NCBI GenBank assembly: GCA_943359485.1
Contig: CALRHR010000001.1
Span: forward strand, 51,141 to 115,140
Length of the DNA: 64,000 nt
Direction: 5' to 3'
From: Candidatus Nomurabacteria bacterium
GTDB lineage: Bacteria; Patescibacteriota; Minisyncoccia; Phycocordibacterales; UBA9973
A program made the translations under genes and the position numbers. The notes beneath the pieces were generated by a model, which had not been told where the DNA came from, did not search any database, and saw only the letters and a program-made list of their open reading frames with translations. Positions 22,268-23,910 of the stretch are shown here, one piece after another. Every line of letters starts with the position of its first letter. Positions within the stretch are counted from its first letter, which is position 1.

Positions 22268-23910
22268 TAGTTAGAGTTTGATCCTAGCTCAGGATGAACG
22301 CTGGCGGCGTGGATAAGGCATGCAAGTCGAACGAATAGTTCCATGAAAGTTTGAAAGACTTTGAGTAGCAATACAAAAAGAATTAATAACTGGATTGGGT
22401 TTGCTATTAGTGGCGAACGAGGTAGTAATACATAGGAACTTCCCCCGAAGTCGTGAATAATCCATCGAAAGGTGGACTAATACACGATGGTCTCGCAAGA
22501 GTAAAGTTTTAACGCTTCGGGAAAGGCCTGTGCGATATCAGCTAGTTGGTAAGGTAATGGCTTACCAAGGCTATGACGTCTAGGGGAGGTGAGAGCCTGA
22601 CCCCCACCGATGGTACTGAGACACGGACCATACACCTACGGGTGGCTGCAGTCGAGAATCTTCCACAATGGACGAAAGTCTGATGGAGCGACGCCGCGTG
22701 ATTGATGAAGACCCTATGGGTCGTAAAGATCTTTTATGAGGGAACAAGTTTATTGACTGTACCTCATGAATAAGAGGCTCCTAATCTCGTGCCAGCAGGA
22801 GCGGTAATACGAGAGCCTCGAGCGTTATCCGGAATTATTGGGCGTAAAGGGTGCGTAGGTTGTTCTGTTAGTCTTTTGTTAAAGCCCCGAGCTTAACTTG
22901 GGATACGCGAAAGAAACGGCAGAACTTGAAAGTGTGAGAGGCGTACGGAACTCATGGTGTAGGGGTGAAATCCGTTGATATCATGGGGAACACCAAATGC
23001 GAAGGCAGTACGCTGGCGCATATTTGACACTGAAGCACGAAAGCGTGGGTAGCGAATGGGATTAGATACCCCAGTAGTCCACGCCCTAAACGATGATCTC
23101 TCGCTATTCGGAGTATCGACCCTCTGAGTGGCTTAGCTAACGCGTTAAGAGATCCGCCTGGGAAGTACGGCCGCAAGGCTAAAACTCAAAGGAATAGACG
23201 GGGACTTGCACAAGCAGTGGATTATGTGGTTTAATTCGATGGTAAACGAAGAACCTTACCAGGGTTAGAAATTCTAGTGCAAGGTCTAGGAAACTAGATC
23301 CCTCGCAAGACTCTAGAACAGGTGATGCATGGCCGTCGTCAGTTCGTGGTTTGAATTGTACCCTTAAGTGGGCTAACGAACGCAACCCTCGTTGTGTGTT
23401 ACAAGTGTCACACGAGACCGCCTCCGACTAAGCGCACGAAGTGCGCAGGCTCTAGGAAACTAGGCTTTAGGCTTTAGCAAAATACAAAATTGCTAGCGCC
23501 TAGTGTCTAACGCCTAATGCCTGCGAAGTAAACTTCGCGAATTTAGTCGGGGGAGGAAGGAGAGGATGACGCCAGGTCAGCATGTCCCTTTGATACCCTG
23601 GGCTACACACATAATACAATGGCCATTACAACGCGTTGCGACGAGGCGACTCTGAGCTAATCGTTTAAAAATGGCCTCAGTTCGGATTGAAGGCTGCAAC
23701 TCGCCTTCATGAAGCTGGAATTGCTAGTAATCGCAGGTCAGCTAAACTGCGGTGAATACGTTCTCAAGTCTTGTACTCACCGCCCGTCAAGTCAAGGGAG
23801 CTGGGAGTACCCGAAGTCTCCACATAAGTGGGGCCTAAGGTAAGCTCAGTGACAGGGACTAAGTCGTAACAAGGCACGGCTAGCGGAAGCTGGTCGTGGA
23901 ATAATTCAAT
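22268..23910 (+). rRNA. rrs: 16S ribosomal RNA (ends approximate), with enlarged V1 and a 113-nt insertion
   Basis: The gene shows AGAGTTTGATCCTAGCTCAG at 22273 and GTGCCAGCAGGAGCGGTAATAC at 22789. It also carries GATTAGATACCC, CCGCCCGTCA, AAGTCGTAACAAGG and helix 45 with a GGAA loop. No 23S follows. Confidence 0.92.
23431..23543 (+). other. expansion insertion in 16S between CCGACTA and TAGTCGG
   Basis: E. coli has a short loop here (GACTGCCAGTGATAAACTGGAGGAAGG). The insert contains three hairpins, including a TAGGC-heptad palindrome at 23446-23523. Confidence 0.8.

Follow-up and report, generated by a model that had tools for sequence, protein, structure and literature searches.

Heptad-repeat hairpins in operon spacers and at the helix 40 tip of a 16S rRNA gene in Candidatus Nomurabacteria

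The 16S rRNA gene and its helix 40 insert

The DNA considered here, a stretch of 64,000 nucleotides from a Candidatus Nomurabacteria bacterium (the window), carries a 16S rRNA gene at positions 22266-23911 of the forward strand. The gene is a complete bacterial small subunit gene, matched by the Rfam model (RF00177) over model positions 1-1533 with 1346.9 bits. No 23S gene is linked to it within the window. One base (22745) separates it from the gene on contig CBCEWA010000001.1 of NCBI assembly GCA_965045245.1; the two are otherwise identical. Enolase adjoins the gene; among the enolase-homologue loci that were searched, L147 alone shares the synteny, on a contig that breaks off at 16S position 578. 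A homologue search with the 240-amino acid protein that neighbors the 16S gene returned none. The 3' end of the 16S rRNA of this organism does not contain CCUCC, the anti-Shine-Dalgarno, an absence known for a subgroup of the Parcubacteria (PMC9297842).

This gene is host to an insert of 113 nucleotides at 23431-23543 (forward strand), which an initial annotation had read directly from the sequence. These coordinates are exact, because the insert sits between CCGACTA (23424-23430) on its left and TAGTCGG (23544-23550) on its right. That annotation also proposed to place the insertion point on a secondary structure model. In the Rfam alignment, the helix at model positions 1149-1166 shows 121 nucleotides, against a consensus of 3, within its apical loop. 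This helix is h40 (about 1161-1175 in E. coli).

Three hairpins had been claimed for the insert, and all three are real. Indeed, the minimum-free-energy fold of 23415-23560 is exactly this junction, with the hairpins standing on an extended base stem (-71.1 kcal/mol; z = -8.1 for the whole insert). Two small hairpins of G+C type flank a long arm, all on the forward strand. The first small hairpin, GCGCAC-GAA-GTGCGC, occupies 23432-23446 and is supported by sequence, fold, and the inserts of relatives; the other, GCGAAGT-AAA-CTTCGC, occupies 23523-23538 and is supported by sequence and fold. Between them, at 23447-23522, lies the long arm. Its left half reads AGGCTC TAGGAAAC TAGGCTT TAGGCTT TAGCA, followed by the loop AAATACAAAAT; its right half reads TGCTA GCGCCTA GTGTCTA ACGCCTA ATGCCT. 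The region 23444-23525 folds with -40.1 kcal/mol (z = -6.4).

A family of heptad hairpins between genes

The initial annotation took the long arm for a copy of an element that recurs in intergenic spacers, and allowed that formal alignment might find these copies unrelated. They do align. A covariance model, R1, was trained on 11 intergenic copies, all from other Patescibacteria genomes and none from this one. With its filters off, R1 finds four matches alone in the 64-kb window, at 67, 55, 54, and 28 bits; the next-best match has 10 bits (E = 2). One of the four is the long arm of the 16S insert, matched at 23453-23516 with 54.8 bits and E = 8e-14 by a model blind to this genome. The arm is, therefore, a member of the same family as the hairpins in the spacers.

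The same sites emerge from simpler searches. Three or more TAG at 7-nt spacing are found in the 64 kb solely at 5498-5581, 11489-11561, 23461-23517, and 51631-51684. Likewise, TAGGYNNTAGGYNNTAGC with at most two mismatches has 16 matches, every one within the four sites, against 0.54 expected. The family is dispersed beyond this genome; Patescibacteria provide 32 of the 119 loci from a TAGGC-heptad scan of species-representative genomes, and two phage contigs (L003, L021) carry the same hairpin architecture.

The claimed recurrence holds for the spacers between rpmF and nusB, between the pilin paralogues, and between nrdA and nrdB. It does not hold for 3741-3767 (TTGCTAGA three times), which had been listed as a half-element. 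This is not a member of the family, because its period is 8 nt and R1 does not detect it. The gene names given in that annotation stood up to a check, the products being NrdB, NrdA, L32, NusB, and T4SS-pilin paralogues.

The member in the rpmF-nusB spacer, at 11489-11561 on the forward strand (R1 67.4 bits; fold z = -5.5), fills that spacer, running from the TAG stop codon of rpmF (L32) at 11489 toward the ATG of the nusB-NUDIX gene at 11566, as delimited by Pfam and the open reading frames. It has an orthologous counterpart in Candidatus Nomurabacteria L108, to which it is 87% identical, against 71% for the flanks; this places it in the top 3% of windows.

The member at 51624-51699, also on the forward strand (R1 53.6 bits; fold z = -4.7), lies between two genes that Pfam identifies as T4SS-pilin paralogues, with the next ATG at 51704. 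Its best match, at 87%, is a copy inside the 23S gene of the genome L112. Pilin homologues, which would have spoken to orthology, were sought in L112 and none were found.

The third intergenic member, at 5492-5582 on the reverse strand, is a divergent copy of CTAG type (R1 28.3 bits, E = 7e-6; fold z = -4.4). It fills the spacer from the stop codon of nrdA (5583-5585) to the ATG of nrdB at 5491. In relatives, the orthologous spacers measure 6, 49, 101, and 113 nt; at 101 and 113 nt, the spacer is a heptad palindrome, of CTAG or TTAGC type.

Throughout the family, intergenic copies begin at a stop codon, and their distal arm ends 0-15 nt short of the next ATG. Of the 21 copies outside rRNA, 13 have co-directional neighboring genes, one has divergent neighbors, and none has convergent ones.

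The layout of the family begins with three to five YTAGGCN units and TAGCA; an A/T-rich loop (5-13 nt) then leads to TGCTA and three to five NGCCTAR units, and the ends are frequently closed by CAGGC/GCCTG. The arms pair through cores of 5-6 nt and the N positions are mismatched, giving a long helix that is broken every 7 nt. Across 45 aligned copies, 95% of the core cells are paired. At the paired N positions, both are Watson-Crick in 0 of 39; at the Y/R position, C.A occurs 20 times, U.G 18 times, and a Watson-Crick pair 13 times. All three reading frames of the hairpins, on both strands, contain TAG or TAA. The four copies in the window fold with z values from -4.4 to -6.4.

A bias toward G.U over A.C at the Y/R position of the sense strand was sought as a mark of selection on the RNA, and it is absent (18 versus 20). 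Further, the cores scarcely vary, so that the aligned copies offer little covariation. Thus, RNA-level selection is not demonstrated, and the conserved feature of these hairpins could be the DNA word itself. The variable bases are identical in 34% of adjacent units, against 15% of random pairs of units.

Copies from different candidate phyla have a consensus identity of 84-87%. With copies of its own genome the 16S copy shares 84% identity, no more than the 84-85% that it shares with copies of other candidate phyla. The TAGGC type is dense here, with four copies in about 75 kb; this figure includes about 10.6 kb beyond the window, where a census found no further copies. In 593 kb around the 16S genes of relatives, the type occurs nowhere but at the h40 of L226. 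The TAGGC type in this genome looks, then, like a genome-specific expansion. Rfam at gathering thresholds returns no family that matches the heptad elements; at a permissive E-value, it returns sub-threshold matches to microRNA-like hairpins alone. In a literature search, TAGGCAGTAGGCAG and strings like it turned up in no paper.

Helix 40 in relatives and a second rRNA case

The 16S genes of relatives were gathered by a 16S-pattern scan of metagenomes. In every gene that reaches h40 (n = 44), save one (L183), this helix is expanded, with 47-344 nt between the anchors. Within a set of 39 relatives with 81-98% core identity, the inserts reach about 170 nt at most, one relative (L183) having none, and their sequences are unrelated. 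L186, which is outside this set, has 344 nt between the anchors, with an open reading frame in its far longer insert. Length and sequence of the insert differ even at 97-99% core 16S identity. For example, L216 and L211 are 98.8% identical in their cores and carry different h40 cassettes. The type of cassette does not track the core 16S tree.

The same tip carries at least four other words of 7-nt period: AATTACG, AAAGTNN, GAAAATT, and CTAG. With the detector at a relaxed setting, the relatives show 29 periodic regions at lag 7, as against 14 at lag 6 and a single one at lag 8. Judged from these sequences, the 16S h40 tip in one clade of Paceibacteria is a hot spot, where long hairpins of at least five periodic words replace one another among 16S genes 97-99% identical.

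Several relatives share a scaffold in which a base stem bears two small hairpins and a long arm; in the present gene, the TAGGC type is confined to that arm. Equivalents of the first small hairpin, with compensatory changes, are found in L175, L226, L211, L170, and L192; an example is GCGCAGTAGCGC in L211 versus GCACAGTAGTGC in L170. The initial annotation favored an element over an ancient expansion, and noted that an insert conserved among distant relatives would argue otherwise. The sequence of the insert is not conserved, and for the long arm the idea of an element survives. The site of expansion and the scaffold, however, are old.

A TAGGC hairpin is also found in a second rRNA. In L112, another Paceibacterota genome, it stands coaxially on the tip of a 23S helix (LSU model 2613-2632), with a fold z of -9.6. 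The same search with intron models that was run on the window finds a group I intron in this 23S gene. With a second copy on an rRNA tip, in another genome, the phenomenon is therefore recurrent.

Origin of the hairpins and their significance

We propose that the heptad hairpins are a REP-like, self-homogenizing family, and that the 16S insert constitutes the local form of a rapidly changing h40 cassette, its long arm being a member of that family. We give this explanation an even chance of being correct. Here, the h40 cassette would be typical of a Paceibacteria/Nomurabacteria-like clade. The places occupied are non-coding and putatively transcribed, namely the spacers of operons and the apical loops of rRNA helices, and would be ones that tolerate an insert. 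The arrays would arise, and would stay uniform, at the level of DNA, through slippage of the 7-nt unit and copying from arm to arm, processes that we infer from the pattern alone. This, in turn, would explain why different words are found at one site in close relatives.

The TAGGC word may have reached h40 by templated replacement of an existing arm from an intergenic copy, or by homogenization in place. In-place evolution alone would not easily explain the consensus identity found between candidate phyla. Selection or homogenization may lie behind the conservation of the rpmF-nusB copy above its flanks, an observation counted in favor of the proposed explanation.

In messenger RNA, the hairpin is probably a structured spacer between cistrons that offers a stop in every frame. 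It may shield the 3' end of the upstream message or serve as a candidate site for processing by RNase III, and it would bring stop and start codons close together. A gene for RNase III (rnc), the candidate processing enzyme, lies in the window at 12431-13258 on the forward strand (Pfam Ribonucleas_3_3 125, Ribonuclease_3 95, and dsrm 55 bits). In rRNA, the hairpin would have neither a coding nor a catalytic role. It would project from the head of the 30S subunit as an expansion segment, or be excised by RNase III as an intervening sequence (IVS).

Known systems offer partial parallels. Short tandemly repeated repetitive sequences (STRR), the heptanucleotide repeats of heterocystous cyanobacteria, reportedly also occur inside the gene for RNase P RNA. 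The heptad hairpins are like STRR in being dispersed 7-nt tandem repeats of non-coding DNA (with three to five TAG units per arm) and in extending a peripheral helix of a structural RNA that is essential. They differ in lineage (Patescibacteria), in word (YTAGGCN), and in host, which is rRNA (16S h40 and 23S) instead of RNase P RNA; they are, in addition, strictly palindromic and contain stop codons in all frames.

Of the long simple repeats in prokaryotes, those with a heptanucleotide unit are the most common (PMC4679880). TAACTGA heptamers lie just upstream of start codons in Beggiatoaceae, Cyanobacteria, and Bacteroidetes (MacGregor, 2015; PMC4679880). These share with the heptad hairpins a stop-containing heptamer, an intergenic position a few nucleotides before start codons, a patchy distribution, and no known mechanism. 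TAACTGA repeats are, however, direct repeats with no predicted structure, while the present heptads stand in inverted arrays, fold into hairpins, and are found in rRNA genes as well.

The insert also resembles the IVSs of rRNA that are removed by RNase III. An apical loop has been replaced by an extended stem, as the Rfam alignment and the fold indicate; the insert is sporadic, hypervariable in close relatives, free of open reading frames, and shorter than 200 nt, and an RNase III gene is present. Unlike IVSs, the 16S insert is built from a repeat family of intergenic spacers, which is unreported for them, and has a conserved multi-hairpin scaffold; its excision is hypothetical. Conservation of the scaffold suggests, in turn, that the insert may be retained in the rRNA.

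The hairpins might instead constitute a small non-autonomous mobile element, MITE-like, REPIN-like, or of a new kind that needs no transposase, which would target the tips of hairpins and stop-start spacers and would have invaded the 16S h40 loop and the tip of a 23S helix in L112. We consider this unlikely, if well worth weighing. Two rRNA-tip copies in different genes and genomes are independent of one another, the nrdA-nrdB spacer has the hairpin either present or absent (91-113 nt versus 6 nt), and each type of h40 cassette turns up in scattered places on the 16S tree. The conserved CAGGC/GCCTG ends, the consensus common to several candidate phyla, the copy density particular to this genome, and the architecture shared with the phage contigs also speak for a mobile element.

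The dispersal of an alignable family is the part of the MITE/REP-like proposal in the initial annotation that stands; mobility fares less well. Target-site duplications are seen neither at the four copies in the window nor at the nrdAB orthologues, and the rpmF-nusB copy is retained at one orthologous site in genomes 71% identical. A MITE combines terminal inverted repeats with duplications and an autonomous relative, a set not seen here, and the window yielded no partner transposon. The copies within this genome are no more similar to one another than to those of other phyla. Further, each of the other heptad words at the h40 tip would require an element of its own.

REP and REPIN elements are associated with RAYT transposases. 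Like them, the heptad hairpins are imperfect palindromes, dispersed and extragenic, that lie within transcription units with co-directional genes on either side, and they, too, are likely to form RNA hairpins. Unlike REP and REPIN elements, they consist of heptad arrays instead of a GTAG-type head with a single palindrome. Nor does the sequence covered here show many highly similar copies, as would be expected of such elements; the four copies in about 75 kb include a pair, in the 16S gene and the rpmF-nusB spacer, that is 84% identical. The sole Y1/RAYT-like gene of the window (47016-47642; Y1_Tnp Pfam 46.5 bits) scores 67 bits against NCBIfam REP_Tyr_transpos, under the model cutoff of 80. 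It is bordered by three identical copies of TGTCAAAGGCGGGCTTTGACA (at 47014, 47656, and 47732), which are not heptads. A link to REP/RAYT was rejected, this Y1 gene carrying different flanking hairpins of its own.

A link to the attC sites of integrons was also rejected. The sequences GTTAGGC/GCCTAAC resemble the core sites of attC, but the arms have the reversed orientation relative to these. TIGR-Tas arrays, which have 36-nt units with two spacers and adjoin a Tas gene with a Nop domain (PMC12045711), were set aside as well; the heptad arrays repeat every 7 nt and are single hairpins.

It is improbable, in our view, that the UAG-N4 arrays are sites for an oligomeric RNA-binding protein of the HutP or TRAP kind, which would control read-through, stability, or re-initiation, with the rRNA copy docking or titrating the protein. 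TRAP binds (G/U)AG repeats. The features that invite this reading are a period of 7, an invariant UAG, at least three units per arm, and a linker of 8-20 nt between the arms. Conservation lies in the word of each arm and not in perfect pairing, and the sequence at the orthologous rpmF-nusB site is strongly conserved. Hexameric HutP binds (UAG N4)x3, and the hut terminator of Bacillus, which is cleaved at U498, U505, and U512, has two XAG sites 12-17 nt apart (PMC2425495). Its layout is echoed here by two groups of UAG triplets, three or more per group and spaced 7 nt apart, with a short linker, lying from a stop codon to the next start and overlapping a hairpin (PMC2425495). The left arm of the heptad hairpins fits such an array. 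The right arm does have UAG or UAA at period 7, frequently UAA, but within a word that is the complement of the left and not a second direct array. HutP sites belong to one operon; here there are many loci, in unrelated operons with no common function, and one copy in rRNA. None of the 30 window proteins scanned with Pfam is a homologue of HutP or TRAP. Words without a conserved UAG (AATTACG, AAAGTNN) hold the same h40 position in relatives.

It is very improbable that the hairpins are ordinary intrinsic (Rho-independent) terminators, with the rRNA copy a chance look-alike. They are predicted to be stable, and a T-rich run follows one phage copy (L003/L021), but none of the copies in the window is followed by a U-tract; downstream stand AACAAATG and AAAAAAATG, and at nrdAB TTTTTATG, right before the start codon. 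Copies are found inside operons (nrdA-nrdB), none was seen between convergent genes, and other hairpins of the window, with A-run and T-run arms, resemble real terminators. The E-value of about 1e-13 for the rRNA copy speaks against chance. The initial annotation had offered an intergenic terminator as one option; lacking a U-tract and reaching within operons from a stop codon nearly to the next ATG, these hairpins do not support it.

Introns are frequent in 16S genes from the Candidate Phyla Radiation (CPR; PMC11270868), but a self-splicing intron is effectively refuted by the absence of any match in the window to group I or II models at gathering thresholds and by a length (113 nt) far below that of introns, as is an assembly artefact by the independent NCBI record and by relatives from many metagenomes that are expanded at the same point.

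A bolder reading can be stated, one we regard as doubtful. Here, the heptad hairpins would be a new class of transposase-independent, self-propagating cassettes, template-switched into hairpin tips and stop-start spacers and exchanged between lineages of Patescibacteria, which quickly remodel rRNA helices (16S h40 and the 23S H93-equivalent). They might possibly also be docking arrays for a UAG-heptad-binding protein where the anti-Shine-Dalgarno has been lost.

Because the long arm of the 16S insert belongs to the same family as the spacer hairpins, a repeat hairpin from between genes can also sit on rRNA. Insertions are well known from CPR rRNA genes; short ones without open reading frames have been listed as "uncharacterised" (Tsurumaki et al., 2024; PMC11270868). 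One class of these now gains an identity, the 7-nt-periodic hairpin of operon spacers. Such inserts change the lengths of amplicons and break metagenome assemblies, and they may mislead the 16S-based placement of these lineages. The heptad family is widespread in Patescibacteria. Because it is widespread, has stops in every frame, and abuts start codons in organisms without the anti-Shine-Dalgarno, it is a candidate player in intercistronic expression.

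Helix 40 insert and its copies in the window

The window contains one complete bacterial 16S rRNA gene (22266-23911, Rfam) and no 23S gene in an Rfam search of its 64 kb. In the Rfam alignment, the apical loop at model positions 1149-1166 holds 121 nt, versus 3 in the consensus; the expanded helix is helix 40 (h40; about 1161-1175 in E. coli). Direct reading of the sequence confirms the limits given by the initial annotation, 23431-23543, with CCGACTA on one side and TAGTCGG on the other. The three-hairpin fold that it described is also recovered (-71.1 kcal/mol, z = -8.1). Sequence and fold place a small hairpin, GCGCAC-GAA-GTGCGC, at 23432-23446, a long imperfect palindrome (the arm) at 23447-23522, and a second small hairpin, GCGAAGT-AAA-CTTCGC, at 23523-23538. 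A single base, 22745, inside the 16S gene, distinguishes the window from NCBI assembly GCA_965045245.1 (C here, G in CBCEWA010000001.1); the rest of the 20.7-kb overlap is identical.

The gene has other peculiarities. Helix 6 carries a second expansion (22338-22402, 65 nt versus 14 in the consensus) without heptad periodicity; the relative L147 also has one, of other sequence. The leader GTACTGTTTTTTGTTTTGTTTCGTTC (22231-22257) and the trailer GGAACGAAACAAAACAAAGGACAGTAAC (24108-24133), about 200 nt beyond the 16S end, are close to reverse-complementary, and the pair likely forms a processing stem around the gene and a structured trailer. Past helix 45, the 3' end (23886-23911) reads GGAAUAAUUCAAUUUG and lacks the CCUCC anti-Shine-Dalgarno motif, a loss known in one Parcubacteria subgroup (PMC9297842).

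Runs of at least three TAG at 7-nt spacing occur in only four places in the 64 kb (5498-5581, 11489-11561, 23461-23517 and 51631-51684). All 16 matches to TAGGYNNTAGGYNNTAGC with up to two mismatches, where 0.54 are expected, fall within them. The same four were found, filters off, by a covariance model (R1) built from 11 intergenic copies in other Patescibacteria genomes: the rpmF-nusB spacer (11496-11553, 67 bits), the 16S arm (23453-23516, 55 bits, E about 1e-13), the pilin spacer (51631-51691, 54 bits) and the nrdA-nrdB spacer (5512-5580, 28 bits). The best remaining match in the window scored 10 bits (E = 2), and no additional copy was found in about 10.6 kb of flank outside it. Long hairpins with a break every 7 nt are predicted for all four (z -4.4 to -6.4). 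Thus, the earlier observation of a 16S insert and a dispersed palindrome is correct, the R1 match making the arm a true member of the family. The half-element proposed at 3741 falls outside it, TTGCTAGA x3 having a period of 8 nt. This repeat adjoins one of several small palindromes centred on ACGGCCGT (CTAACGGCCGTCAG) and repeated after genes (3082-3113, 3696-3733, 32630-32665).

Architecture and spread of the hairpin

The repeating unit is YTAGGC-N in the left arm and N-GCCTAR in the right; TAGCA closes the left arm, TGCTA opens the right, an A/T-rich loop lies between, and the outer ends are frequently CAGGC/GCCTG. Over 45 aligned copies, the core is paired in 95% of cells, the majority of pairs being invariant. 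Facing N positions were both complementary in 0 of 39 cases (the sense strand has chiefly A.A or G.A), and the Y/R position has C.A 20 times, U.G 18 and Watson-Crick 13. The helix is therefore mismatched at regular intervals. The near-equality of U.G and C.A gives no G.U bias in the sense strand at the Y/R position as proof of one-strand RNA selection. Because the core is YTAR, TAG or TAA appears in all three frames of both strands in both arms.

TAGGCNNTAGGCNNTAGCA has at least 119 matching loci in species-representative genomes. Among the matches listed, at least 32 are from Patescibacteria (Nomura-, Uhr-, Kaiser- and Vogelbacteria, Paceibacterota, Saccharibacteria), most with the two-arm architecture. 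Others listed come from Acidobacteriota, Alphaproteobacteria, Cyanobacteria, Planctomycetota and further groups (G+C 0.28 to 0.73), and some phage contigs have the same architecture. TAGGCAG/CTGCCTA heptad palindromes of this design occur in high-G+C genomes (Brevundimonas, Mesorhizobium, Acidobacteriota) and phage contigs (loci L003/L021, L035, L077, L097, L100, L111, L145 and others); therefore, the phenomenon reaches beyond Patescibacteria.

A second rRNA copy lies in L112, a Ca. Paceibacterota locus, at 7831-7892 within the 23S gene. Here, CAGACCGU[95 nt]GGGACAGUCUG folds at -68.5 kcal/mol (z = -9.6) and coaxially extends the H93-equivalent helix (LSU model positions 2613-2632). The pilin-spacer copy of the window is most similar to this one (87%). 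The same 23S gene (4544-8000) also holds a group I intron (6747-7076), and two tRNA-model matches (5808-5880, 5920-5994) lie within the stretch that aligns with the LSU model.

Turnover at helix 40 and in spacers

Scanning metagenomes for a 16S pattern specific to the clade gave 76 loci, 44 of which extend to h40. The truncated h39 is common to the window and all 44; h40 is expanded in all but one, the distance between anchors being 47 to 344 nt (166 in the window). Insert sequences show no relationship, even between genes whose cores are 97-98% identical. Several are 7-nt-periodic palindromes of non-TAGGC words: AATTACG/CGTAATT and AAAGTNN/NNACTTT in six loci each, GAAAATT in L197, CTAG in L226. 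Periodic regions number 29 at lag 7, versus 14 at lag 6 and 1 at lag 8. In several relatives, two small hairpins flank a long arm, with compensatory changes. L216 and L211 have 98.8% identical cores and different cassette types, and the AAAGT type is found in cores down to 88.7% identity. Judged from these sequences, cassette type is incongruent with the 16S core; chimeric 16S assembly could contribute. Genomes of the AAAGTNN type also have another AAAGTNN-type hairpin directly past the 3' end of the 16S gene (L211 239-275, plus about 60 nt further; L170 about 6343-6363; L222 about 1753-1773).

In L186, 344 nt between anchors include an 85-aa GIY-YIG nuclease ORF (Pfam 57.5 bits). Thus h40 is a hot spot for insertions in general, like those catalogued in CPR rRNA genes (PMC11270868). 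In 593 kb around relatives' 16S genes, R1 found no TAGGC-type copy except at the L226 h40. Of the idea that a dispersed element inserted into 16S, the membership of the arm stands; the site, however, is an old hypervariable expansion, not a simple new insertion.

Spacers also turn over. In four relatives with NrdB 87-89% identical, the nrdA-nrdB spacer measures 6, 49, 101 or 113 nt; the 49-nt form contains a plain hairpin, and the two longest contain heptad palindromes of the words CTAG and TTAGC, respectively. No target duplication is visible. At this one site, then, the element can be present or absent, and its word can change. The orthologous rpmF-nusB copy of L108 (Ca. Nomurabacteria) is 87% identical, versus 71% for the 3.3-kb syntenic block, ranking in the top 3% of windows.

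Mobility, termination and the preferred reading

A mobile cassette is an explanation that we keep alive. It would account for two copies at rRNA tips (16S here, 23S in L112), for an element present or absent between nrdA and nrdB, and for a consensus common to several phyla. MITE-type mobility, as first suggested, is unsupported. The window does encode a 208-aa Y1 (IS200-like/RAYT-like) transposase (47016-47642, minus strand, Pfam 46.5 bits), which scores 67 bits against the NCBIfam REP-associated tyrosine transposase model, under its cutoff of 80. Its flanks, however, carry three identical 21-nt hairpins TGTCAAAGGCGGGCTTTGACA (47014, 47656, 47732) that differ from the TAGGC heptads. Further, the 16S copy matches copies of several candidate phyla at 84-85% identity and its own genome's rpmF-nusB copy at 84%. 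There is therefore no sign of recent within-genome copying. A hairpin similar to TGTCAAAGGCGGGCTTTGACA occurs in the relative L194 (2333-2351), and L150 carries a Y1 gene 32% identical to that of the window. Elsewhere, an ORF (61393-62133, minus strand) with a weak LAGLIDADG_3 match in precomputed annotation overlaps tRNA-Cys (61341-61413, minus strand) by about 20 nt; it may have a connection with the tRNA introns known from Patescibacteria.

The genes around the spacer copies are verified by Pfam and ORF calls: NrdA, NrdB, L32, a NusB-NUDIX protein and three T4SS-pilin paralogues, with an RNase III gene immediately downstream of the NusB-NUDIX gene. Spacer copies in the window run from the upstream stop codon to 5-6 nt ahead of the next ATG. 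Of 21 copies outside rRNA in Patescibacteria loci, 13 have co-directional neighbouring genes, 1 has divergent ones and none has convergent ones, and the distal arm ends 0-15 nt from the start codon. No U-tract was found after the hairpins, which are therefore not classical terminators, leaving that proposed function unsupported.

Among the closest precedents are STRR heptamers, which reportedly lie inside cyanobacterial RNase P RNA genes, and, for the 16S insert, RNase III-type IVSs. TAACTGA heptamers, which sit upstream of start codons (PMC4679880), are another. The UAG-N4 spacing matches the HutP recognition rule (PMC2425495); a HutP-type reading would be a lead and not a finding. The heptad-repeat hairpin is best read as a REP-like, self-homogenising element in tolerated transcribed sites, whose rRNA copy either stays in the rRNA or is excised by RNase III.
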